The notes: a model not told the origin generated them from the letters alone. DNA of 63,602 nt, filler included, from Rhabdomonas costata (GCA_019059605.1; 31 parts of 31 records of this genome joined end to end with filler, not necessarily neighbours in it); one strand, 5' to 3'. Positions 2,059-63,602 are shown, counted from the whole stretch's first letter. Numbers and translations are program-made.

Positions 2059-2420
2059 GTGTGGTGGGGTTTGGTGTTACGGTTGGTGCGAAGGGTATGT
2101 TGGTTGCGTAGGGTGTGTTGGTGGTTGCGTTGGTGGTAGCGTTGGTTGTAGCGTGTCGTGGAGTCGTAGTCGTTGGTGCTGATGCTGTAGGGGTTCGTGG
2201 TGTGGTTGGAGCTGGTGCGTTGGAGGTTGGTACGTTGGAGGTTGGTGCTGCTGCTGTGTGTTCTTCGCTCTCTGTCTCAGGGTCTGTCTCAGGGTCTGTC
2301 TCAACCATGCTCTCAGGGTTCGTGTCAACCATGCTCTCTTGCTTCGTAACCATGCTCTCTGTAACCATGCTCACTCTGTCTCTGTTCCTGCTGTTGTGTT
2401 GGTTGGTTGGTGCGTAGGGT
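2059..2420 (+). repeat. G/T-skewed low-complexity tract with short tandem units
   Basis: Repeated TCTGTCTCAGGG and AACCATGCTCTC units, directly upstream of the RT region. Confidence 0.7.
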
Positions 2421-4008
2421 GTGAGATGCGCAATGAAAGGGTCCACCGTTGGAAGGATATTCTTCCTACCCTCTGGGCTACCCAGAGCGCGCGCGTGTTC
2501 TCGTGGCTGAAGGCGGACACGCCGTCCTGGGGCTCTTCTCCTATTTTACAATGCTCGGGCATGCAGTGCACCACTCTCGAGGAGGTCGATATCCAGGTCC
2601 AGGACTTTTGGGTTAAAAAGATCTGGAACCTGCACGCCTCGGTGGATTCCGCGCAGCGATGGGCAGCTTTTCAGTCCTCGCCCTTCTTCGCACACATTCC
2701 GATGGACTGCAACGCTTGTGAGTCGGAGCGTGTGCGGACTGTCCTCCGGAGTATGCGGGAGGGCTCCTCTCCAGGGGCCCGAGGCTTCCCCATTTCTCTC
2801 TGGAGGGCCCTTCCGGACTCCTTCCTCAAGCGGGTAGCTGACCTCTTTACCTTGGTGGAGGTGGATGCGTTGTGGCCTAAGGAGCTCCTGACGGCATACT
2901 TCACGATGATCCCGAAGGCCTCGGGCGGTAGTCGCCCTCAGGACAAACGGCCGATCACAGGGCATGGTCATCACATGGGCCCCTGCCCTCCAGAGCTGTT
3001 ACCTCGGGTCCACGGTGATGGGGTTTCGGGCGCAGGCAGGCACCCTTCACCTCGTCCAACTGCTGGCCGACTTGATCGAGCTTCAGAAGCGGCGTCGGCA
3101 GCCCTTATGGCTGGTGTCGTTCGACGTGGAAAAATGCTTCCCGTCGCTGCCGTGGTGGGCCATTTTTGGCGTGCTGGAGCGGGCCGGAGCTCCTCCTCAT
3201 TTGGTGAACTGTTTCCGCAGTTTCTACAGCCACCTCCGCCAACGATTTCGCTACGGCCAGGTGGATGGTGCCGAGTGGAGTGCGGCCAACGGCCTTGCGC
3301 AAGGCTGCCCTGCGAGTCCCGACTTGATGAACATCTTGTTCGAGCCCTTCCACCGCTGGGCCGCTGTGTCGGAGTTCCTATCCTAGACGAGTTCATCGCC
3401 TCGGGCAGCTTCGCCGATGACGTGGCGCTGGTGGCCACCTCCCTTGCAGAGGTGCTGCTTCTGGTGAACGGGTACCAGGCCTGGTGCGACCTTACCCTCC
3501 ACGTGGAAAAGACAAAGCTGTGGTCGCTCCAAGGTCGCCCTGGCGATCATATTGAACTATCTTTGGCCAAGGGCCCTCTCACCTTGGAGCTTCAGCCTAC
3601 GTTCCGCATTGTGGGAGTTGAGCTGGGATCTCAGGAACGTGTCGCCACTACGGCTCACTTCGCTCCGCGTCTTGCAAAAGCTCTTCTGGGAGGCCGGCGG
3701 CTCGCTGCTCTGGAGGTACCCGCAGCAGTTGCTGCCCAGCTGTGGCGTACGGCCATTCTTCCCACGGCATTGTATGGCAGTGAGGTTCGGCGGGTTACCC
3801 CTTCTCAGCTTTGGCCCCTGGCTTTACAAGGCCGCAAGGTGGTGCCGGCGAAGCTCCCGCTCTCCATTTCTCAATACGGAGCCATTGGGAGCCTGCGCCT
3901 TCCGTGACCCCCGCCTGGATGTGCTGGCCCGTCGTCTACGGTGGCTCATTACGCTAGCCAATCTGCCCAGCTTGGTCGGGACGGTACACCGCTTTCTGGC
4001 CACCTCCT
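2420..4008 (+). mobile_element. Non-LTR (LINE-type) retrotransposon reverse transcriptase, frameshifted
   Basis: RT motifs in order across two frames: SSPGARG, IPKASG..RPI, GFR, SFDVEKCF, GLAQGCPASP, FADD. Frame changes near 2960, 3380 and 3890. No introns. Confidence 0.9.
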
Positions 4009-4589
4009 NNNNNNNNNNNNNNNNNNNNNNNNNNNNNNNNNNNNNNNNNNNNTTAATTAATTAANNNNNNNNNNNNNNNNNNNNNNNNNNNNNNNNNNNN
4101 NNNNNNNNGTGGTTGGTTTAACTTTCTGTCTCAATTAGACCCTCTTTCAATGTGACTGTTGTTTTTGATATTGCGACCTTTCGTGCCCTTTTTCCTCGGC
4201 ACTGTGCGTGTGCTCCCTTTAATCAAATTGTTGGACGCCACATTGATTTGGTGGCGTTCTGACCTTAATTCAGCACATGCGTACAAAACGAGACGTGCGG
4301 TGGCGCATCTATCGGACGAAGCACTAAACAGTACCCTCCTCTGCTTTCTCTTGGGGGCGAGAGGTGAGGGAATGCTGAAGACTGGGCTTAAGAGGTCGGG
4401 TAAAATGATAATGTACTCTAATATGATGCGAAAGAGAGAGGATCTTCCTTGATCCGTATTCACAGAGGCTGTATTGAGTAGCACGGGATGTACCTCTCTG
4501 GTGAACCCCTGCAAATTAGTTCAGCTGCGAAATCACCAGCGGTGTGCAAAAGGCGTTTGAAATTCATAAACACGGAGCAAAACGATAGG

Positions 4590-7160: not shown

Positions 7161-8680
7161 ACCCTTTGATATTCACATAAACAATCATGAACCTAACAGT
7201 TTTACTTTGCACTTACTCTCTTTATGCATAAGACAATAAAATTCATCAAAAACCGCTTTGTTTTGTGAAATATCCCACTCAAGATCCATTCAAAAAATGA
7301 GAGAGGAGAGAAAACGCGTAAGAAATGACCCCTTTTTGATGTTTTTCTATAACAAATGCTTCCAAGTGCCAAGTGTGACAAGTGTGTGAATTAGGTTGTA
7401 GAATAGAAATCATAAAAAGTGTATAAAAACGCAAAAAAAATACACCCGCAAAAGAGGGTGAAAAAGATGAGAGATGCAGAAGTGGTATTATCAAGACGTC
7501 TCACATGCATGTAATTGTCTTTAAGGTGTTTGTGGCCCCTTTGTTTTTGCTGCTCGTATGCTACGCAACGCTGTGCATATTTCCTAGATGTGATGATTCA
7601 TGTGCTCAACCGACATAAGCCGCGTACGAACATTCACCTACCCCCCACACTCTGCAGCGGTCGTTGGGGTGGTAATCATGAAAGATGAGTGGTGAGGGTC
7701 ACCCAAGATGTCCTTGATGGTCGCATAATCGCAACGCTCGTATGCTCCCTAAATGAAGTGGTTAGTGCATTACACCACCATAAGGTGTCTACATGCACTC
7801 ACTCTCTAAGGTCTTCACTCACTATGTTAGTTGTAGAAATGCCTTTAAGAGAGAAAAAGATGTTTATTTCTGGTCGCATACTCGCATACGCTCGTATACT
7901 CCCTACATTTGATGGTTCATTCGCTCCACTGCTACGCGGTTACAATATCAAAGATCAAATCACAGCAAAGGAGCCCATGTAGTAGATGAACCAGAAGGCA
8001 AATCCACCGCAACCAGAACCCGGACACCAAACGCATGAATCATTGAAGCAGCTCCGAACACAGCACCCACCTAACCACAACATCCAACCGACCATAGTTC
8101 ACAACAACAAAAATGAATCCAAGTCNNNNNNNNNNNNNNNNNNNNNNNNNNNNNNNNNNNNNNNNNNNNTTAATTAATTAANNNNNNNNNNNNNNNNNNN
8201 NNNNNNNNNNNNNNNNNNNNNNNNNGGTTGTGTGGCCGCGGGCAAGGGCGAGGCGGGACGGACTCAAAAGGATGGCAGCGGCAGCATCGTCCACGGGGAA
8301 GCCATTGATCGATGGGAAGGAATCAGCAGTTGTGAGCCCGACACTCGGGTGCAATCCAAACGGCCCTGCAGAAGACTTCAGCGGAAATTACCTGACTTCA
8401 CGAAGGACCGGCTCCGGCGAAAATGACAACGCGGCCATTCTGTGGAGGGAACGACTCGGGTTCAAAATTTCCGTTGGAAATGGACTCGACGAACGGTCGG
8501 TAATCGATGCAGTCCAGGACAGCGGTGCTTGACGTGGGGGTCGAGTGCTTTGTGTCTGTTGGATTGGTAGAAAAATGCACAGCCCGTGCAGCCGTTGAAG
8601 GAAAATGTTTTTGTTTGAAAGCGAAAGACGCACGGAAAAGGTGAATGGTTTGACTTCTCTCTGTGCCTTTGTGTCTGCAG

Positions 8681-9744
8681 GAAACAAGTACGAGGATGCC
8701 AAGCCGCTCTTTCTTCAAGCTGCGAATCAGTTCAAGGGAGCGAGCCTATGGGAGGAGGCCGGGAGGGCTTTCATTCGTGCGTCGGAGTGCTGTGCAAAAC
8801 TAAAGCATGCTTTTTTATGCTCCATTGCGGTTCCGACCATATCCTTTCAGGCTTTTTGTTTTTTCGGAAACAGCGTTTTCTTTTCGTTCTTTGCCATCTC
8901 AGGGAACCTCTGGATACCGCAAACAATCTCGCTGAGGCCGCAGCCATGTACAAGAAAGTCAATCCCTTGAAAGCAGCGGGCTTCCTTCAAGAAGGTGGCG
9001 CGAACATGTCTCGTTTGGGTAAAACCGTCCGTTTGTTGCGTGATGATGAGATTTGGTTTTAGATTTTCAGCACATTCAGTATTGCACAATTGGGACGCTG
9101 TGAGGGGCTCCTTGGCTGGGTTAAGGTATTTGAGGAATAGAGCGTTGTCCACCATGTTTTTTTTCTTCATTGCGTTTTCGTTGTGTTTCTTCCGGATGCC
9201 GTTCATGGTGGTGATGGTGATGCTCATGGACCCACCCCTCGGAGGGCGGGTAGAGCAGATCCACACCTATGTCAGAACAGGCGCGAACACATGGGGCTTG
9301 ACGCCCGGAGGAGCACGACGACCAGCACCGGCACGAGCACGAGCACCATGACCCACCTCGTGGTTGTGGATGTCGTCATGGATGGGTGCTGGCTGATGGT
9401 TTCGTTGTTCTTGCTCTACTTCAGAAAAGCAAGCATAATTGAAGCACTCCTCTGTAAAGGGGATTTGAAGTAACTGTTTGTCAACTTGTTTGAGACTTTG
9501 AGTTGAGGAAGTCTCCTAGAACAGTTTCATTTCGTTTTTTAATTCGCTGTCTTCTTTGCTGCCAGCTTTGGACACCTTCGACAAGTCGGGCCGTTTCAGC
9601 AAAAGCGCAAAACTCTCCTGCGACCTGGCAGAAACGTTTGAGAAGGACGGAAATCTGGACAGTGCCATGGAGTGGTACTTGAAGGCATCCGACTACTATC
9701 GTTCGGAGGGCTCCACCTCTACTAGCAACGGCTGCAGATTGAAG
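8681..9744 (+). CDS. SEC17: Alpha-soluble NSF attachment protein (alpha-SNAP/Sec17), internal exons
   Basis: Exons 8681-8804, 8903-8994 and 9566-9744 splice in frame: NKYEDA..F.QAANQFK...WEEAGRAF...ANNLAEAAAMYKKVNP...GRFSKSAK...AMEWYLKASDYY...NGCRLK. Intron 1 is GC-AG. Confidence 0.93.
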
Positions 9745-14426: not shown

Positions 14427-16193
14427 GAGGTAAAACACCTGATGCAGCAGATTGACAAGAGGGATGGGCTGAGCCTCTCCGACGATTGTAAACGTGTGCG
14501 CAGCATGTTCCAGACCCCAAAGGGTGCCGATGAGGAGGAGGAGGTGTTATGCGGCTCCCCTGCTGCCACTTGTTGAATACATTGTGTGGGTTTGGTGTAG
14601 AAACTCGAAAAGTAATTGAAAAGGACCCAGTGATGGCAGTCTGTTATTTTTGGTATGCTCATGTTGTACGCGCCCGGACCCACGGGAAAAGCGGAGATTC
14701 CTGTCCTGCAGCGCGTTCAATGCTTGAAACATCTTTCTCGTCATCCATCGTCCGTATCAACACAGGCTTTTCAGGGGGGGCGGGGGAGAAATTCAAGACA
14801 TAATAACTGTTATTTACGCTGGTAGCTTCCAGCCCTTCAGCCAATTACAAAAAGTTATGCGGTGTTGCGGGTATTGCATTCTCGCGTTAACGTCGTTGAA
14901 CTCCGCAGGGAAAAAAAAGCTGTGGGGATGGATATTTTGTTTGACTCTGATACAGTACAATCCTTAACAGTCTGTTCGATCCAGTGAACATCAAGATCGT
15001 CATGTTATCGATTATTGTTGGAGTGAACCTTCAACCTCTCTCCAACCATTGGCACCGCTATCCCTTGAAGGTTTTGAAGCAAAGGAAGCTTTCGGAAGCT
15101 TGTTTTGTTGGGCATACGCAGCCACCGCGGCAGACTTGAAGGATCACGGGCAACCCGTGGGATGTCCATCTCCCTTGCCTCTCTCTTCCGCATCTCAAAC
15201 GCCCAACTGTGCACCCACTCTCCGCAGGAGATCGAAGCCACCGCGCTGCACGTCAGCTTGCAGTGCCCGCTAAGCTTCATACGGATTAGCATCCCTGGAA
15301 AGGGCCTGGATTGCCGGCACATCCAGTGCTTTGACCTGGAGTCCTTCCTCACGACAAACCTAGGTATGCGGCTGGTGTGAGGGCACATGGTCATGCTTTT
15401 GCAGGGTTGTTTTTCCCTTTCCGTTGAACTCCAAGCATTCTTAAGCAACCAATTGCTACTTTAAATCTTTTCGCAGGCTGATAAGCTGGGAGGAGGGTTA
15501 TCTCCCGCGGGATTTGCCGGAGCATCACAGGGTAGCCCTCACATCACAAGTGGTCGTTTGTGTACTACTGTGGCGTCAGCAGTGCCTCGTGTGTGTGTGT
15601 GTGGTGAGGGCTGCGCTGTTCGGGCAATTAATGTCCCCAACCTTGGGCCGTGGTTGGCCCCCATGTTTCACAGGGTAAGTCCTGGTTGGTGTTGGGGATG
15701 GCCTTCACCCCAACGCCTAATCGAGACCAGCGTGGTAGACCGTGAGTTTGGATTCGAGCCACCTTTCGGTGCCTGACATTTTCCGCACCAATGTGTGTGA
15801 AGAGAGGGTGGCAAGAAGAATGTGTGTGTGTGTGTGTGTATGAATACAGGGTGGCAAGCGGACAATGGAAATGAAGGGAAGAGCAGGAAGCCAGCAGACA
15901 AGGAGATGCACGAGGAGCCAGCTACAGAGGCCAGCCTCGAGGAGCAGCTCGTGCCCAAGAAAAAGCGAGGCATGACGAGTTCTGATAAGGATCCCAAAAG
16001 GCTGAGAGTTGATCGGGGTGGGGGTGGTGCCTCAGGGCGGCGGAAGCGAAGAAAGGAGAAGGACCGCGACCGGGACCGAGATAGGGACCGCCGCGAGCGG
16101 GAGGACTGGCTGTGCCCGGTGTGCAGTCGCGCCGTCCACCGCGATGACCTCTACGTAGACAAGTACTTCCTGGACATCCTGAACAAGGCCGAC
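14427..16193 (+). CDS. SP-RING (MIZ) E3 SUMO ligase, PIAS/Siz family
   Basis: Exons 14427-14543, 15228-15363 and 15850-16193: EIEAT...[24 protein letters not shown]...WLCPVC.....[13 protein letters not shown]. Confidence 0.9.
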
Positions 16194-17485
16194 GTACGTG
16201 CACGCCCTGCGGCCCCCCAGCTCCCGCCCTTGTGAGTAAAGAAGAGTGAGAGAAAGTTTTGAGAGAGCATCATTATCAAGGGCTCATCAAGGATCCTGCT
16301 CTAGCGGGACCCCACCTCGCGCGCCACCACTTTACCTTCACCCTATCCACAACCCACCNNNNNNNNNNNNNNNNNNNNNNNNNNNNNNNNNNNNNNNNNN
16401 NNTTAATTAATTAANNNNNNNNNNNNNNNNNNNNNNNNNNNNNNNNNNNNNNNNNNNNTGTTGGTGGTGAAAACTTGATATAGAATATTCCAGTGAAGTC
16501 GCAGAATACAGAGTTCCACATGACCAGGCAGTGACGTGGATAGAAGGCAGAGTAGCGATCTACACAGAGAACACGTTGAACTACCTTGCAACCTGGAACT
16601 CGCCGTCGTTCTGGGCGCTTTGTAAGAGTGTTTGTATTTCACAGTGTATGGTGAAAGAAAGCATAAAGCAACGGAGCTCACCGGTCTTCGCAAAGGACCC
16701 CAATTTTCCTCTGAATGTCCCGTGCCAGGGCTTTCATTATTGCCTGCGGAAGTAGGTCGAGTGCCATTCTTGGGATTCACCTGTCTCTTCTCTGGCTTTT
16801 ATGGGACCTGGCTGCCTCAGCACAGAATAGAACGATGCAGCAAAACAAGTCATTTTGCGTGAGTGCGTTGAAAAAACAAGTTGCTATTTTCTTTTGAAAC
16901 AATTCCGCACAACGTGGCTTAGTTCATACATCTGCCCCACATCCGCGGCAGGCCGGATGGGGCTGGATGGTGTTTCAGGAAGTGTCCGAAAATCTAGCCT
17001 CATGTCTGGCGGGCAGTCAGTCTCCACAGCACCTGCGAATACCGTGAGAAGAGGCATACACTCCTGGGCAGCAAATTAAACACCAATGTCACTTTTCCCT
17101 TCTCCTTCCACTGAATGGTAATGCAGCAATGCATGATTCGCTCACATCTCACTCTGCAAGATGTGCAAGGAGTGCACACCCATTTTCAGAGGTTAATTGT
17201 TTCTATAGAATCTGTCTTCGGGCATGTTCTTCGACCTCTGAGTTTTCAGGTGAAGAGGGTTTTCAGGACGTCGTGGTGTACGAACGCTCGCAAGACGCAG
17301 GCAGGAGGGAGGTGGTCGTAGATCAACGGAAGGAGGAGTCGAAAGACTGGAGGGATTTGTTGGGGGGACTGATCGGAGAAAAAAAGATGCAACAGTCCAA
17401 AAAAGGTTCTGAAAGGAAAGATAAGAATGAAAAAGGACTGTAACTGCGTATGAATTTGTATGCGTGTGTTCTCTGTCCTGGTCAG

Positions 17486-18340
17486 CGTTTTGCTCGACGA
17501 AAGTGATGGCGTACTGCTATGCGCGACGGCTGCGGGAGGCTGGGGTCACTGCGCAGCCGATTACGGGCACGATGGACGTTGCCCGGCGGCAGGGCATCCT
17601 GGATGACTTCATGAGCAAGGGCTTCCAAGTCCTCCTCTCCACAGACATGCTCAACCGGGGCCTGGGTGTGCACCTGACCGTGACACTCCGTAGCGTGTGT
17701 TCGGCAAATGATCTTGGGTACAGCACGAATTCAACATTCAATCTGTTTCATGGATGTATCTCCTGCATACATTGTCTTCCATCCATCCATATAATATGAT
17801 TATCATCATATTAACACCCGACATAGGCGTTGGATGTTCTGGACCAACCTCCAAAGGTATTTTAATCGGGAACGCTACCGACCGGAGATATGCAGTTCCA
17901 GGTGGTCAGTTGCATCCCCTATGCCTTAGTGTTGTTGCTCTTTCAGATTTGTGCGATCTGAGCGTCGTGGTGAATCTCGCGTTACCCAACTGCTTGCACA
18001 AGTTTATCACCCGAGTGGGAAGGGTCGCCCGGGCTGGCCGTCCGGGGGTGGCTCTGTCCTTCTACAACCCCGACACTGACGCCGAGATGAAAGGATATCT
18101 CGTGGCCCTGCTGCAGAAGAACGGTTCCCTTCTCTCTATTCCTTCTCCTCTTGGCAATATTTTATTTCTACACCTTGTTTTGGTTCTGACATCTCTCCTG
18201 AATTCAAGGCATTTCACTGGATCTGTTTTTGCAGAGCATGTATGTGTGTTTGCTATCTAAGGGGTTTTTTGAGCATGTGCATGTATGTCATGCAGGCCGT
18301 CCCTTGCCCCCGTTCTTCTCCCCGGAAGATGCAAAGGAAG
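17486..18340 (+). CDS. DEAD-box RNA helicase, C-terminal RecA2 domain
   Basis: Exons 17486-17665, 17947-18123 and 18296-~18340 carry motif IV (FCSTK), motif V (STDMLNRGLD) and motif VI (TRVGRVARAGRPG). Confidence 0.88.
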
Positions 18341-38910: not shown

Positions 38911-39292
38911 TCAGAGGAAGTGAGAAGCGAGGCGAACAAAAGAAAAGAAATAAAGAAATAAAAACGAAACCAACCNNNNNNNNNNNNNNNNNNNNNNNNN
39001 NNNNNNNNNNNNNNNNNNNTTAATTAATTAANNNNNNNNNNNNNNNNNNNNNNNNNNNNNNNNNNNNNNNNNNNNGTGGTTGTTGTGCACACACCTTCCT
39101 CTTTTGAGATGACGCGGGCCGTATGAGGACCGCTGACGAGGCGAGAAAAGGTTTGCAGTCTTCGAAGGTCTGCCACCGGGCGACAGAAGAGCAAGTCCAA
39201 TTGACAGGTTACTCTAAGTCCCTCCCGCACATCTTTCACACCTCGCTCCTCTGCTGCCTCCCCCTCCCTGCTTTGCGCCCCCACTGGCAAAC

Positions 39293-40939
39293 CATGTGAA
39301 GCAGGGAGACGATCAACGTGACGGCCAGCAGATAGGGGTTAGTCTTCACAAGCATCCGCCTCATGTCCTCGGATGGGGAGGCCCCGGGATCTACAACGGA
39401 ATGTTGGGTACAGAGAAGGACGTGGAATTCAACTCTTATTTTTCTCAGATTTCGCCCGCAGGGTTTCGTGTACTGGTGCGCTTCTGGTTTGGCCTGCCGA
39501 TTCTGAGCAAGAGCGGAGATGATGTGGCGACGTGCGCATTCCGCCAGACTACCTGTAATCTTTGGGTGCCACCCGCTCTGTTGCAAGAAGGCGGAGGTTT
39601 ATTCGCCGCAGCGTGTGTCGTGCTCTTACTGTTGCCATCCACAACGACCTAAAAACTCAGAGGATCTTCGGAGAATCACATTACACATGCCATTGTTCTC
39701 CCTGTGGATTTCTCCCTCCCCCCTACAGTGCCTTCCTGTCGTCCTGTCTCGTGGGTGCGGGTGCAGACCTGTCCTGTCCTGTAAATGTGGCCCTGTCATG
39801 TCTGTGTGGCGGCCTGAAAATCAGATATCACAAAAAGCGTGCCATTTGGTTTCGCACTGCATCAAGTCGCACATGGGCGTCGCCCATACGATCACCTTTA
39901 CCCCCACACCAACCACCAACCGCCACCTAAACGAGCCGAGCACCCACGGAAGGACGCAGACCAGAGCCCACTCCAGCCAACGGCATCATGTCCATCGTGT
40001 ACTCCATCTGCACCAGGAACTGCCACTTCCACAGGTCTACGGGGGCGTACGTGATCTGAAGGGACAGCGACTTGCCCTCCAGGGAGCGGTTGACCTCAAT
40101 CATGTCCTCCTACAAACGCAATCATTTCCAAGAAACACACAAGTAGTGAGGACGAACAGCCAAGTCATGATCTTCTTACAAGAAACACCTGATGTTCGGA
40201 ACCAGATACGCAGGGAAGTCAAGTTGCGGGACAGAAACCGGCCGAACGTGACACTTTACACAACTGTTATGCGAAGGGCTAATTTGCTGAGAACGTTCCC
40301 TGCTTTTCTTTGTGCTCTCCTCGCCTGCGCGCTTGAGGGACACAAAAAGCCATGTGGTGGCAAACTGCAGCAAACAGGGTCGAAGAAAAACGGTTTTTAT
40401 CAGTACAAAAACTCAAAGACAGACACACACACACACACAGTTTATTCTTTGTCTTGCCGGATGTGTGGAAAACACCCTCCCCCCCCCTCCCATGAAAAGT
40501 GCCTGTGAAACCCTTACTACATGGCCACGTTGACGCTGTGATTGTGTGACCATGCCTTCGTGTGACCGCCGGCTCCAGGGCGTGCGCGCGGGCGCAGGAA
40601 AAACATTTCGAAGAAAACGTGACCGTCTGGTCCACCCTATCAGCACTTGATGCTTCGTGTTAGAAAACTGAGGTGCCCACAGTGTCACTGACGCAGACCC
40701 ACAAACAGAAAAAGTAATTCTATTTTCGAAAAAGAAGAAGAAGAAGAAGAAGACTGCCGAAAACCGCGGCCTCCGTAAAAGTGTTTTTGCAGCATGGCCA
40801 CTCAGAAACGATGCCTTACCGGCAGCAGGCTGAACTCGTTCACATACAGCACGGGGGCCCACTGGCGAGACTTCCGGTCAAACTGGATCTGGTCCGCGAA
40901 GTGCGGAGGAAGCTGCGCCGGCGAGTACGTCGTCCAGTC
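39293..40939 (-). CDS. CLPTM1: CLPTM1-family membrane protein (lipid scramblase)
   Basis: Exons 40939-40820, 40109-39962 and 39390-39293: PVLYVNEF...EVN......L.L.I.Y.P..LWKWQ...MRRMLVKTNPYLLAVTLIVSLLHM. Confidence 0.92.
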
Positions 40940-53434: not shown

Positions 53435-54005
53435 TTGTGGGTTGATTTTTATCCGTTCAATGCAATCAAGATCATAGATTCGTATCCATTACCTCGCATT
53501 GATGAAATGATTTATTACGCTGGTAAGGCTAAAGTGTTTTCGAGGTTATATTTGCATGCAGGTTTTCATCAGATTCGTATTCATCCTGAGCATGTGGAGC
53601 GTACAGCATTTACGACGAAGTACGGCAAGTTTCAGTTTTTGGTGATGCCGCGTTTGTTGTGCAATGCGCCAGCGACGTTCCACAGGACGATGGACTTCAT
53701 TCTGGAGGATCTGAGAGAAACGACTGGAGCATATGTGTATGACATCTTGGTGCACACTTACACCATGGCGAAGCATGCTGAAGCGTTGAGAGTGTTGTAT
53801 AGTATATTGCGGAATGAGAAGCTGTTTGCTAATCCCTAGAAGTGTGTGTTTGGTCAGCCAGAAGTGTAGTACTGTTGGTTCATTGTGTGGAGAGATGGAA
53901 TAAGGCCACATCCGAGGAATTTGATGGCGATTTATAAATGGCCAACGTTGAGGAACCCAGTGGATGTGAAGAGCTTTCTTGGTCTTTGTGTGTTTACCTT
54001 GAGTC
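53435..54005 (+). mobile_element. Ty3/Gypsy LTR retrotransposon RT, inactivated
   Basis: DSYPLPRIDE...GFHQIR...TAFTTKYG.FQF.VMP..LCNAPATF. The catalytic YxDD is mutated to YVYD, and in-frame stops follow at 53837 and beyond. Confidence 0.93.
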
Positions 54006-55365: not shown

Positions 55366-55483
55366 ACCAACCACACCCAACACNNNNNNNNNNNNNNNNN
55401 NNNNNNNNNNNNNNNNNNNNNNNNNNNTTAATTAATTAANNNNNNNNNNNNNNNNNNNNNNNNNNNNNNNNNNNNNNNNNNNN

Positions 55484-56795
55484 CACCAGCCTCAGGCTGA
55501 CCCACATGGGCTGCGAGGGCGCCTCGTGGGTCGGCGAGGCCCCCTTCACAACCGCCCTCACATGTTCCAGGCACACCCACCCATCCAACACACACACGCT
55601 GTTACTTTCTCTCTCTTTTCAACCACAGCAATGGTCACCAATAGTTCTTGCATTACACCACATATACATATTGCACGCTCTGTGGGGGTCAGACTGACCC
55701 GAGCAAGTCCAGAGTCCATGGCTTCCGTGGTGCCCTCCGTGTCCGAGGGCGAGGGTCCGACAGCAGGGATTATTGCCAAGTGCCACACCCGAGATTATTG
55801 CCAAGTGCCACACTCCGGGGACTGAGCAGACAGACGCAGTTCTCAAGCACAGCAGACTGCGGACTGCCACTCTATCCACGCACACAGAGTGAGGTTTCTT
55901 CGCTTAGCGGGACGGTGCCGCACACAATTTGCTGCTTGCGAGGAAATTCGAGAACGTTTCGCTCCTTCCATTCCTTGCACCCCTCAAACCTAAGGGAAGA
56001 GAATGAGAAGAGCTTGGTCAGATTGCCTGTGCGTGTGGCAATGGGTTGGCATCCTTTCTCCAGGTTCCTCTCTCAAGTGGCTCACCTGGCTCCTTTTCAT
56101 TTAGCTTTGCACGGTATTAGTTTCTGGTGGGGCGGGGGGCGTGCCCCAGAACATGGGAGATGGCACGTACTTTCACTCCGGCGTGCTGGCGATCCGCCAC
56201 GCTATTGCCACCAACACCACAATGACGTACAAGCTGCTGTTTAACAATGCCGTCGCCCTCACTGGTGCTGTGCGATGTCATAGTGCGTGCGCGCATGGGA
56301 GCTGTCGCTGCCGAGTTGTGGGGAGCGAAGACAGACACAAAGGAGACTCTGTCAAAGGGCGGTGCTGCGCGGCTTGGTGAGTGGGGCGTGTATTAAACGT
56401 TTGATGGCTTCTGTGCCTTGAACTGTTCTTGTGGTTTACCCGCTGCCAATTATTATCGACACACAGCTTGGCATCGGCGAAGCAGTCTCGAGAAGTTTGA
56501 TGTCCATGTCAGCTTACGTGGCAATGAAACGTCACGCGGCCTTGTCACTGACAATTTTTTGGGGTTTCCACCGCTTGCTTGCTTTGTAAGGCTATCATTG
56601 GAATCCGCGGTTTCTGCACTTCAACGGTTACCTGCACAGCAAGATTAAAACAAAAAAGGTGGCCAGCCCTTCGACGGCCCGCTGACGGTGCAGCAGCTGG
56701 CGGCTCAGGTCTACGCCGAGGGCGTCGCCAAGCTTGTCGTGGTCACCGCGAACATGGAGCAGCATAAGGGATCCGCCTGGCCACCCAACACAGAG
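55484..56795 (+). CDS. Indolepyruvate:ferredoxin oxidoreductase (fused bacterial-type IOR), TPP-binding region with introns
   Basis: Exons ~55484-55570, 56150-56264 and 56659-56795: THMGCEGASWVGEAPFT..PHMFQ|NMGDGTYFHSGVLAIRHAIA....TYKLLFNNAVALTG|GQP.DG..TVQQLAAQVYAEGV. A one-base frameshift is needed near 55550. Confidence 0.92.
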
Positions 56796-58299
56796 GTCAT
56801 TCCCACACCACCACCTTTCTGGGCTGGAGTGAGCGGAAGGGGGTGTTCCCCACCTGCATTGCTACCTTCCTGCAATGCTGGCGACCTTCCCTCTCATCTT
56901 TCCAATGCCTTGAAGAGTGTCCTCCTCGTTATCTCTTCTCTCCTCCCTTTCCCTGTGCCGTCGGCTTCTGAACAACCCATCCTCAACCTCAGGACGAAAT
57001 CACATCAAAAACCTCATAATGTTTTCTCGATTGAAAACTGAAGAATAAACAAGGGCTAAGCCGAAGCAGGCCTGCAGTCTTTTGTTTTTTAAAGCAGGCT
57101 TCCTGAAAAGCGCTGGTTGACCCGTCCTTGGGGTCATCGGCTGAGACGTTTCCTGACCTTTCCCCCTCCGCCGGTAGTGGAGCCCCTTGGCGGCTCCTTC
57201 ATTCCCTTTTGCACTGTTTCTTCTGCCCCAGGCAGTGGAGGGTTTTTTATGACAGCACCCACAACGTATTTGCAAAAAACTCATTATCAGGGGATGCGGG
57301 CCTTCTGCCTCAGTTGTCCGTATCAGACGTAGTCATGTCCGATGCTCAGCAACGCGAAGAAAGCGATTCGGGAAGGACACTAATGAATAGAGACAAAAAC
57401 GCAAGCCAAAGCAGAGCCAGAGACAGCAAACAAACCACNNNNNNNNNNNNNNNNNNNNNNNNNNNNNNNNNNNNNNNNNNNNTTAATTAATTAANNNNNN
57501 NNNNNNNNNNNNNNNNNNNNNNNNNNNNNNNNNNNNNNTTTTGTGGTGGCTGTTCTTTCGTTGCTCGCGAGGCGAGGCGAAAAAGAACAAAAGGGAACAT
57601 CATCAGTGAAACAAACCGAAAAAATGATTACACTCAGTAACGATAACTACGGCTCCAAGTGTGCGATTAGCGCAGAAGGAGAGCCACCAACCCTCCGCAC
57701 CTTGGTGCGGTGCATGTCCTGCTTTCTCGCAGTAGTGGCCTCCATAGTCTCTCCGGTATTCCCTGATCTGCGTGCAGCGCGGGAGTTCTTGCTGTGGGTG
57801 CCTCGCTCCTTCCAGTTCCGGCTGGACTTGTTCGCGGGCATTTTCTCTCTCTCCAAAAATGGAAGAATGGAAAGAACGCCGACGACGAGAGCTCTTCGAA
57901 GTATCCCCCCAACAACAAGAAGAGGCTTGAACACTGACAAAAAGAGAGCGAAACTCCCAAACGACAAGCCAATGAACAACGGCTGGGACACAGAACAGGG
58001 AAATTGCAAGCCTGAAAGCCTGAAGAAGAAGGCAGTTGAGACCAAAGAAACAGCTTTCTGTTAGACCGTCAGCTGGTGGAGGCAAGCAAGCAAAAGCGAC
58101 GAGAGCCTATTTCATTGCCATTGAAAGGATAGAATGATGCACCAACCATGCCAGTGCCTCAATGAGCCAGTGAATCAGAGTATCGCTGGCACGATGACAG
58201 CGTCGCCACGTAGTGACCCATGACACTGCAAACTAACCGCCTCGAATCCACACAAAACTGGACGAAGGTGTCAAACGGAAGCCACACTGGCTGCAGTCA

Positions 58300-59306
58300 T
58301 TACCCCGCTTCGGCTCGGGCCCCGCAGTCCGCCATTGCGGTGCTCACCCTCTGAGTCACAGGGTCGGCGCAGACGGCGACCGAGGCGGAGACGTCAATGG
58401 CCTCTAGCCGCACCCCGGCCTCGCGGTAGTGCCTCAGAATGGGCTCCGCCTGTCCGTGGTACGCCGCCACCCGCCGTGCGATGACCTCGGGCTGGTCGTC
58501 GGGGCGTTGGGTGAGCTCCCCACCACAGGCGTCACATACTCCTATTACCGGATTGTAAAGCAGGTTTCATCATAAAGCAGAAAGTCCAGCATTTGAAAGT
58601 CATTGCGAAAAATTTTCATATCGGAATTCACTGCGCACTTATTTTGGGAGGTGTTGCCTGCTTATGTTCACCACCATTACAGCATCCAATTACTATAAAG
58701 GGGCGATAGAAAGCTGCCCGATGGATTCATCCATCCAAAATTGCAAGGAACCGGAAATTATGAAAAGGATATTATGAACAACGAAAAGTATTGGCGCAGC
58801 GAGAAAGAGATGGCAAGGACGCTGCCAAACCATAAATCAGGTCTCGTGCAACCAGTTAAACACACAGGGCACTTTGCTGTCTAGACCGAAATTGTTCACT
58901 GTCCTGCGATCGCCACGATTTGAAAGAGAAACGAGAGGCAAAATAAACAAACATAGCATAAACGCAGGCCATGTGAACATGACGGGCCGGCCAATTTTTA
59001 AAATACAATTGGTCTCGTCGTTGGTCTGCGGATGTCTTGCGAACATATGCATATACCGGGAACTTTTGGAGGCATCGCAGGCATGTTGACACCGGGCTCC
59101 ACTATGGTGACCAAGTTGAAGCCATGCCCACAGCTCCGACAGATTCTCCGCCCGGCCATCTTACCAACCAGGTGCTCATCCTTGAGCTGCAGCTCCAGCA
59201 CATAGTCCACCGCACTGCTGCCGCCACCGCCATTGCAACCACCAAGCAGCCCTTGGGCACTGGCAAGCGTGTCCCGCAAAGCGGTCTCCAGCAAGGCGAT
59301 CTGCTC
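58300..59306 (-). CDS. Adenylate kinase, long LID type with Cys4 zinc site, C-terminal exons
   Basis: Exons 59306-59057 and 58541-58300: GRRICRSCG..FN......MPPKVPG|VCDACGGELTQRPDDQPEVIARRV..YH.QAEPIL.HY...*. Confidence 0.92.
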
Positions 59307-59759
59307 CTGAATTTCCCACAAGGGGTGTATTGAGAGGGTAGCAATGCTCTTTAATTATCTTTTAGACAAAACATGCGCAGATCAGAAACGAAACGCTGGG
59401 GGATGGGGGGCGGGGGGACCGAATCTCGACGGAAGGAATGATGCTTGTCCACAAGTCTCCTGAAGGGCTGAAGGGAGGGAAGGATACATGGAANNNNNNN
59501 NNNNNNNNNNNNNNNNNNNNNNNNNNNNNNNNNNNNNTTAATTAATTAANNNNNNNNNNNNNNNNNNNNNNNNNNNNNNNNNNNNNNNNNNNNGGGACAG
59601 CTTCCCACACGGCGGGATCTAGCAGGGTCTCCGAGGCCAGCAAGCTGACCTCCGTGAAGGGCACGTACCTCAACACCACCTCTGCTGTGAAGAGTACCGG
59701 AGGGGGGTATCATCCTTAAAATAAAGACGGCCGCTTCGGTTGTCGAAAGAGACATCCGC

Positions 59760-61347: not shown

Positions 61348-61648
61348 TGCGAAGAGCACATAGGACGATGACAAGGCACCACAGTAGAGAACATGGGGAC
61401 ATCCCAGACATCCATCAATACGCAGGCAGAAACTACTGATACAGCAGGGCCAAAAAGCCAACCAACCAAACCGGCAGTGTTCTTGCTCGAACCCATTGGA
61501 TGTGTTTGGCAAGGGTTCTCTCACTCTTAGCACTGAGGACAACCAAGCNNNNNNNNNNNNNNNNNNNNNNNNNNNNNNNNNNNNNNNNNNNNTTAATTAA
61601 TTAANNNNNNNNNNNNNNNNNNNNNNNNNNNNNNNNNNNNNNNNNNNN

Positions 61649-62633
61649 GTCTTTTGTTCAAAGAGGTGAGATTAGGGAAAAACGTCGACGCAGCAAGTGC
61701 TTGCAACCCTGACGATCCTATTCCGTTCCGGCACACATCCAAGAACGTGAGGTCGGGAAAGAAATGTGAGGAGGCGAGCATCTGCAATCCCTCTGATCCG
61801 ATGCGATTGCGGCCTAATTCCAGTGACGCGAGCTCGGGAAAAAAGGAAGAAGTAGCAAACGCTTCGACTCCCGCAGCCCCGATCTCATTATGGCATAAAT
61901 TTAAGCACTGGAGGTTGGTGAAGAAGGAGGAAGCTGCCAGAGCCTGTATTCCTGCATCCCCGACAATGTCAAAGCCAGCATTCACGACTGTGAGGTTTGG
62001 AAACAAAGGTGATGCCATCAGCGCACCCAGCCCAACTTGTCCGATCCTGTTACCGGCAATGTGAAGAGACTTAAGCTCGGAGAAAAACGGTGAGGATGAG
62101 AACGCTTGCATACCGGCAGCCTCAATCTGGTTGTCGCTTGCATTGAGAGTCGTCAATTTGGGGAGAAAGCAGGATGCAGCAAGCGCTCGCATTCCGGAAG
62201 ACCCAATCTCACTCTGTCGCACATCTAAGGATGTGAGTTTCGTGAAGAGCGAAGAGGCCATAAGCGTCTGCATTCCCGAAACTCCAAATGCTGAAAAGCT
62301 CACTATCAAAGACGTGAGGTTGGGGAAGAGAGAAACATTGGATCCAACAACCACTTCTGCAGCACCAATCCGACCCAAGAGCTCCAGGTCCTCCTTTTCT
62401 TTAATCGAGAGCTCCCCAGCGGAGCAAACCAGCCAGACAGCCTCGCGAACACGTTCCATGCTGAAAGAATCTCGGAGGGACCTCGAAAATCGAGGGGTTG
62501 CCTTCCATTCCAGGACGAGACATTCATCAACAATGCGTCGAAACCGCCGGCAGACTAGCCGAAGGGTCAGATGCAGCTCCATCCGAAGGAACCGAAAGCA
62601 ACAAACCAATGCGTCCTCAGAAAGCGCGGACAT
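61649..62633 (-). CDS. F-box plus RI-like leucine-rich repeat protein, intronless, 3'-truncated
   Basis: N-terminal LSEDALVCCFRFL.......LRLVCRRFRRIV (F-box), followed by about 8 repeats of 28 aa of the form FPxLTxLxxxxNxIGxxGxxALAxSxF. Confidence 0.9.
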
Positions 62634-63602
62634 CGACACTTCGGACTCCTTTCTTTCTCAGCGCTTCAAAACAGAACAAAGCACAAGACTAGAAAAGTGA
62701 AACGCGAGGAAGCCACCCCAAAATTTGCGCAATACGCTCGTGCACCGAAATCTTTTTCCTCCAACACCATAATGATCACATCTAATGCAATCCCAACACA
62801 TCGTCAAAGCTCTGTGTCCTCGCCAAACTCACCAACGGAGATAAAATTTATTCGCACCGTGGTGCCTCCTCTCAACGTCGCCCCCTTCTTCGATCAATAG
62901 AAAGCGAGCGGTCAAAGATTCAGCAAAAAAAACCTCTGCATTATGCATTACCTGTAACAGGATGCCCGGCAAGGACGTGACACCCTTCCTTACCACCGCT
63001 AAACATCTGCCCGTGTCTGGGGGCCCAAGGCAGCCCCGTTCATTTGGAGCAGCCGCTGATATATGTGGGATTGCCACGCCACCGTTGGAGCTTCCGGCGG
63101 CAGGACTTCAATGCCTGGAAGCATCGACGGGTCAGCAGTCGATCGAGTCCGTGTGCAAGAGGACAAGACAGGTGCTGCCCGCTCACAACCTCAAAAGTAG
63201 CCCTCACCAGCGCCAGTGGGGTCCCGCGGGATCACCACAGCGGAGCTACCCGCGTTGGCCCCATGCACGGAGACCTTGATTGCGTGCCGCAGCTGCCGCC
63301 GAGCCTTGCACCTCAGCTCCTCGTCGCCTGCATGTTGCACAAAACCATACCAACCTCCACAAAAAATCGCCACCAAACAATGCAAATCAAGAAGGACTTC
63401 CTCAAGAACACATTTAGTAACCACTGGTTGAGCTCCGGGCAAATGATTCTTCTTTATGCTATCTTACTGCTGAGATTGTGGCAAAATTTTCCCGAATGCC
63501 AGTGTACAATTGTGCTGGCCGATACTGATTTCCTGGGTCACGTTTGCTACATCTCACTTGTCTGCCGTCCTTGCATAACTTTCTTCCTGTTTTCACTGCC
63601 TG

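Follow-up and report, generated by a model that had tools for sequence, protein, structure and literature searches.

Does the nuclear genome of Rhabdomonas costata carry an intron-bearing gene for an indolepyruvate:ferredoxin oxidoreductase (IOR) of the single-chain, fused type known from bacteria? A preliminary description had proposed such a gene at positions 55484 to 56795 of the window, by which we mean the whole 63,602-base stretch of DNA (GCA_019059605.1) that was analysed. The reading that we favour, with a probability of roughly 0.6, is that these positions hold three exons of a eukaryotic nuclear gene from the bacterial fused IOR family, a branch of the 2-oxoacid:ferredoxin oxidoreductases (OFORs), and that this gene would have been acquired horizontally and would have received its introns later.

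Rather than a continuous piece of chromosome, the window is a series of 31 contigs (1929-1960 bp each) joined by 30 identical linkers. As the contigs are unlinked and artificially joined, no gene neighbourhood can be read across the linkers, and contig 28 (55484-57438, 1955 bp), on which the IOR-like exons lie, provides their sole surroundings. Position 55484, where the preliminary description had the locus begin, is the first base of contig 28, right after a linker, so that exon 1 is cut off and has no real upstream context, and position 56795, where it had the locus end, is the final base 5' of a GT donor at 56796. The features are as follows.

1959-2058, 4009-4108, ... 61549-61648: artificial linkers, N44-TTAATTAATTAA-N44
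55384..55483, no strand: artificial linker at the 5' edge of the contig; the previous contig is unrelated
55484..55570, plus strand: exon 1, truncated where the contig begins; NF009589 match, tblastn matches in both frames
55554..55559, plus strand: frameshift of one nucleotide where three C follow each other (55555-55557), ~75 nt into the contig
55571..56149, plus strand: intron 1, 579 nt, GC...AG, phase 0, GC content 0.55
56150..56264, plus strand: exon 2, NMGDGTYFHSG...TYKLLFNNAVALTG
56265..56658, plus strand: intron 2, 394 nt, GT...AG, phase 1, GC content 0.51
56659..56795, plus strand: exon 3, (G)GQPFDGPLTVQQLAAQVYAEGVAKLVVVTANMEQHKGSAWPPNTE
56796..57438, plus strand: sequence 3' of the GT donor (GAG/GTCATT), presumed 5' part of intron 3, with a minimum length of 643 nt
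57439..57538, no strand: artificial linker that joins the next, unrelated contig

Pfam searches on both strands of contig 28 found no family outside the IOR-like exons, and Rfam gave no match in the whole window.

The IOR signal is real: it runs in order along one strand and lies far beyond chance. Exons 1 to 3 match the NF009589 profile at 477-495, 502-541 and 541-587 on the plus strand (E 0.005, 1.3e-18 and 7.6e-10; bit scores 14.5, 66.1 and 37.1), the whole-protein cut-off of 816 being beyond the reach of 113 of 1170 positions, and tblastn with eight full-length homologues (~1160 residues) placed the exons at residues ~468-574. When a custom profile, made from 70 of 124 fetched full-length bacterial open frames, was run on 2406 six-frame segments of the window, just three segments matched (E 1.1e-5, 5.4e-22 and 1.6e-10 for exons 1 to 3), and the signature reported earlier for this locus, which lies on the plus strand, is sound. 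The next best segment (71-223, contig 1, E 1.4) looks like chance, and neither tblastn nor the custom profile detected other parts of the IOR family on the remaining contigs of the window, or a further IOR-like exon between 56796 and the end of contig 28. Exon 2 (56150-56264), which translates to NMGDGTYFHSGVLAIRHAIATNTTMTYKLLFNNAVALTG, contains a complete thiamine-diphosphate/Mg motif. This motif, which is common to thiamine-diphosphate enzymes, is defined as GDG-X(24-27)-N(N/D), and here it comprises GDG at 56156-56164, X26, and NN at 56243-56248; in the bacterial rows it ends in ND in at least 96% and in NN in 1 of 148.

By its profile matches, the fragment belongs to the bacterial single-chain fused IOR family (NF009589/PRK13030), whose members measure ~1150-1270 residues and combine PF02775, PF01558 and PF20169 (DUF6537). 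Like them, it matches profile positions 477-587 in order and keeps GDG-X26-N(D/N); unlike them, it has two intron-like inserts, a third donor, a frameshift and a long branch. About 10% of the ~1170-residue protein (residues ~468-580) is on the contig, the off-contig parts being the Pyr domain, the cysteine motifs, the POR gamma domain (PF01558) and the C-terminal DUF6537 (PF20169). Where the preliminary description spoke of an IOR gene, the family was thus correctly named, but the object is a fragment.

The two inserts interrupt a co-linear coding sequence at exact, codon-compatible positions, and their removal restores co-linearity with the bacterial proteins. The spliced peptide, in which both inserts were removed by coordinate and an X was placed at the frameshift (113 positions, 112 codons read), could be aligned with 159 of the 160 loci compared (bacterial or metagenomic) in one segment that runs through the two junctions, with 57-68% identity and 0-1 gaps in the 40 best of the 160 rows, in agreement with the introns proposed earlier. 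That the borders are GC-AG and GT-AG and that removal restores the frame fits a eukaryotic nuclear gene with spliceosomal introns. GC content is 0.64 in the exons (GC3 0.85) and 0.51-0.55 in the inserts. As to the splice sites themselves, intron 1 has a rare GC donor of weak consensus, the 3' ends of both introns are without clear pyrimidine tracts, and GGTG occurs at both borders of intron 2, so that its exact cut may slide by a few bases. Transposon-like or otherwise non-conventional introns were considered and dropped, the repeats and hairpins at the intron ends being only short, chance-level matches. Inside intron 1 there is a 25-nt tandem duplication (55755-55804; copies 80% identical) that contains ATTATTGCCAAGTGCCACAC. 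Where exon 1 ends and exon 2 begins, the bases (55557-55567 and 56149-56159, CTCACATGTTC and GAACATGGGAG) are 91% complementary over 11 nt, probably by chance, this being one of 26 inverted pairs on the contig.

The preliminary description had written the conserved residues as one string in a single frame, joined by splicing; this does not hold for exon 1. Its frame 2 (55485-55556) encodes a peptide ending in LTHMGCEGASWVGEAPFTTA and its frame 1 (55559-55570) encodes HMFQ, the frame being lost between 55556 and 55559, and the reading frame is thus not uninterrupted. Between PFTTA and HMFQ eight bases are present where nine are needed, and if one residue is read as X the alignment shows no gap at this junction. 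Since exactly three residues separate PFT from H in bacterial homologues (e.g. PFVDTPHMFQ in homologue P0037), the lesion consists of one missing base and not of an extra intron. Its position in a homopolymer ~75 nt from the contig end, where errors would be common, would make an assembly error more likely than a real lesion. If real, the frameshift makes this gene copy a pseudogene, and it is on account of the frameshift that this possibility, already named in the preliminary description, stays under consideration.

According to this alternative, which we regard as rather unlikely although it survives better than the others, a bacterial-type IOR gene was integrated, gained introns and was then disabled by a real frameshift, and perhaps truncated, so that a decaying pseudogene or fragment is what we see; a large and repetitive genome might contain several dead copies, this being one. 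Besides the 1-nt frameshift within exon 1, such a history would accommodate the very long terminal branch of the fragment in the tree (which could reflect relaxed constraint), the 643 nt after exon 3 that contain no further exon, and the nature of the contig, a remnant of ~2 kb from a highly fragmented assembly in which two other contigs carry dead retroelement pieces (RVT_1). It is at odds with the small extent of the damage (a single lesion over 113 codons, the 112 that were read being free of stops), with the strong GC contrast between exons and introns and the high GC3, and with the location of the frameshift in a homopolymer close to the contig end, which is probably an error-prone place. 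The conserved sites weigh in the same direction: of the 39 near-invariant columns, defined by conservation of at least 95% over 148 distinct bacterial rows, the fragment retains 37, GDG-X26-NN is intact, and the two other columns show conservative replacements, M to L and, within the thiamine-diphosphate motif, D to N, each of which also occurs in one bacterial row. Overall, the fragment is 46-63% identical to the 148 distinct bacterial rows (median 54%), compared with a median of 63% for the bacteria among each other. Such a pattern would fit a gene that has long diverged under purifying selection, and also a recently disabled copy; the conserved sites could have been inherited from a recent donor and not maintained in the eukaryote. 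In our judgement, a gene that still works, or that lost its function only recently, is likelier than one dead for a long time.

We then have to ask whose gene it is. As contig 28 has no link to undoubted host genes and no repeat in common with the rest of the window, its assignment to the host rests on its composition and its introns; its trinucleotide composition correlates with that of the other 30 contigs pooled at r = 0.89, among the highest values of the 31. A eukaryotic origin fits the introns and the composition of the contig, and the eukaryotic nuclear setting proposed earlier agrees with the other contigs, on which SNAP, CLPTM1, F-box/LRR and adenylate kinase sequences are found. A bacterial contaminant is excluded by the intron-like inserts together with the lack of any near-identical sequence. 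It is improbable, too, that the contig comes from another eukaryote in the sample or from bacterial reads misassembled with eukaryotic sequence into a chimera. The missing link or shared repeat would agree with such an origin, as would the identity of the exons to proteobacterial genes, 57-68% in the 40 best rows and 46-63% over 148 distinct rows, but no bacterial or metagenomic sequence exceeds 80% identity for exon 2 or 54-61% for exon 3, which leaves no known bacterium as the source; moreover, two frame-restoring inserts with GC-AG and GT-AG borders are unlike the product of a chimera, and the composition is typical of the remaining contigs.

All of the closest relatives found belong to the Pseudomonadota. 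A word-indexed search with exon 2 left, of 77 candidates, 60 matches at E ≤ 0.001, none of them more than 80% identical and, where they carried names, all bacterial or metagenomic; the same search with exon 3 gave 13 matches at E ≤ 0.01 among 22 candidates, bacterial or metagenomic only, the best named one being from Aestuariispira insulae (59% over 98% of the query). An exhaustive search with exon 3 of 1.84 billion representatives returned seven matches at E ≤ 0.001, identity being 54% in the top-scoring one and not more than 61% in any. As this library is reduced to single representatives of clusters at 50% identity, a eukaryotic orthologue could hide in a bacterial cluster. Scans of metagenomes and of species-representative genomes yielded 127 and 160 relatives, respectively; the best 80 of the 127 were at most 80% identical, and the best 80 of the 160 were titled Alpha-, Beta- or Gammaproteobacteria or unclassified Pseudomonadota. 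No eukaryotic homologue was found in the word-indexed, clustered and pattern-based searches, which, with queries of 41-51 residues, are weak evidence of absence. In a maximum-likelihood tree of 80 named genomes and the fragment (114 columns), the terminal branch of the fragment has a length of 2.13 versus a median of 0.087, and the fragment groups weakly with Arenicellales (SH-aLRT 89), no placement being well supported. The sequence search and tree that the preliminary description had called for thus returned relatives that are exclusively bacterial or metagenomic, but not a firm position among them. From these matches, a proteobacterium-like donor is most likely, which we do not name below phylum level; spliceosomal introns would have been gained after the transfer.

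Another thiamine-diphosphate family (PFOR/PNO, OGOR, two-subunit IOR or a decarboxylase) is a hardly credible source of the fragment, since the weak exon 2 matches to TIGR03336 (IOR_alpha/IorA, E 9.6e-4) and PF02775 (TPP_enzyme_C, E 0.11) that could suggest one are expected from the shared motif, whereas the fused-family models (NF009589, E 1.3e-18; NF009588, E 2.5e-17) are at least 15 orders of magnitude better, exon 3, which lies outside the shared motif, matches the fused family only (NF009589 and NF009588), and the listed homologue matches with Pfam domains show the fused architecture only, mostly PF01558 with PF20169 and often with PF02775 (a few short or partial matches list no Pfam domain). 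Exons 1 and 3 are without a TIGR03336 match. The fused bacterial family named in the preliminary description is thus confirmed, and a best match to a different thiamine-diphosphate family, which was to count against it, was not seen.

What would the complete protein do? That OFORs form a superfamily is established knowledge, and the reaction steps given here are those expected of its members. The 113 visible codons would encode the central part of the domain that binds thiamine diphosphate (PP domain), with GDG-X26-NN as the anchor of the Mg-diphosphate, and the full protein, if it works as its family suggests, would catalyse the CoA-dependent oxidative decarboxylation of an arylpyruvate or a related 2-oxoacid to acyl-CoA and CO2, passing two electrons through Fe-S clusters to a low-potential acceptor. 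In such a reaction, (i) thiamine diphosphate would attack the 2-oxoacid, which is the sole step whose cofactor-binding motif is visible here; (ii) CO2 would leave; (iii) the hydroxyalkyl-thiamine intermediate would be oxidised in two one-electron steps via the Fe-S clusters; and (iv) the acyl group would be transferred to CoA. Substrate, acceptor, compartment and oxygen tolerance cannot be read from the fragment.

The best functional analogy for the full protein is Ior1 of Phaeobacter, a marine alphaproteobacterium, likened to it by annotation and not by sequence; we take Ior1 to be a member of the fused NF009589 family. According to a review, work with mutants and 13C labelling on this protein, annotated as an indolepyruvate oxidoreductase, is reported to show that phenylpyruvate is converted to phenylacetyl-CoA during aerobic growth (PMC5577590). 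The two-subunit IorAB of archaea and anaerobic bacteria shares the superfamily and the thiamine-diphosphate motif with the fragment, as the weak exon 2 match reflects, but differs in subunit architecture and scores far below the fused family; in Aromatoleum, IorAB is reported to carry out the anaerobic conversion of phenylpyruvate to phenylacetyl-CoA (PMC9765128). The eukaryotic PFO/PNO enzymes constitute a different OFOR family, and the fragment has no match to PFOR models. In the relevant passages of a 2026 review of PFOR, PFO/PNO are OFOR-superfamily enzymes of bacterial origin with a patchy distribution in anaerobic and aerobic protists, IOR is named only as a member of the superfamily, and eukaryotic enzymes are described for PFOR only (PMC13768988).

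Little biochemistry was found for the bacterial fused family itself, its functional evidence being genetic and indirect. Among solved structures there was no sequence-detectable relative of a full-length NF009589 member, and a literature search found, among the papers listed, no mention of the C-terminal DUF6537 of fused IOR. Full-text searches, judged by titles and abstracts, gave no report of an IOR in a eukaryote and, for indolepyruvate in euglenids, no euglenid enzyme; no literature on IOR and dinoflagellates was found. The earlier statement that IOR is rare in eukaryotes agrees with these limited searches, in which neither a eukaryotic homologue nor a literature report turned up, and, as far as they reach, fused IOR as an OFOR class not yet described in eukaryotes is a credible lead.

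Caulobacter vibrioides is an obligate aerobe, and it was the only one of 14 control genomes in which NF009589 was detected; among the sampled Pseudomonadota genomes, 35 of 151 had a match above the cut-off. Being common in Proteobacteria and present in Caulobacter, the family is no marker of anaerobiosis, and the anaerobic, ferredoxin-linked fermentation of aromatic amino acids suggested in the preliminary description finds no support. By analogy with what the family seems to do in aerobic Proteobacteria, IOR might be active under oxic conditions.

It is possible, as a tentative extension of the favoured reading, that a proteobacterial-type single-chain IOR is encoded by a functional nuclear gene with introns in a euglenid-like protist and would convert aromatic 2-oxoacids to arylacetyl-CoA alongside PFO/PNO. 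With the same reserve, such an enzyme would provide a CoA-dependent, low-potential route for aromatic 2-oxoacids from Phe, Tyr or Trp. What we have is likely a horizontally acquired nuclear gene fragment, of which too little is visible to say that the gene works. Bacterial metabolic genes in protist nuclei are an already known kind of case. Should the gene be intact and expressed, it would add a new class of 2-oxoacid:ferredoxin oxidoreductase to a eukaryotic repertoire so far of the PFO/PNO type, represent a further case of transfer from bacterium to protist followed by intron gain, and offer a directly testable eukaryotic enzyme for the conversion of arylpyruvate to arylacetyl-CoA; it would also bear on the role of the little-studied fused IOR family in aerobes. 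As a 113-codon fragment with a frameshift, its current value is that of a lead and not of a result.

Several minor observations concern the other contigs of the window. The contig at 51385-53334 (minus strand), considered as a flavodiiron/flavodoxin-like candidate, was dropped, Pfam giving nothing relevant even at E 1. RVT_1 fragments lie at 2910-3383 and 53435-53836 (both plus strand), and the first of them is enclosed by a 574-codon open frame (2183-3904) with no other Pfam match. A 90-nt inverted similarity (79% identical) between 173-260 and 15701-15790, on contigs 1 and 8, is the sole similarity between contigs in the window. Exon-sized matches to SNAP (alpha-SNAP; 8599-8967, plus strand), Helicase_C (17431-17796, plus strand) and CLPTM1 (39239-39598, minus strand) indicate that parts of ordinary eukaryotic genes are found on these small contigs. 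On the minus strand at 61650-62657, a 336-codon open frame encodes an F-box and many LRR_6 repeats; of its 41 matches, the two best come from the euglenid Rhabdomonas costata in EukProt (50% and 40% identity; E 1.4e-44 and 6.1e-34), which hints, from one gene, at a euglenid-like host, and the remaining ones are mostly bacterial or metagenomic LRR proteins. Finally, two adenylate kinase exons (GC3 0.71-0.81) are found on the minus strand at 58345-59215 (contig 57539-59493), with ADK_lid split between them by a GT-AG intron of ~510 nt; the second exon ends at a GTGAGC donor, and the pair provides an example of the conventional introns of the host.
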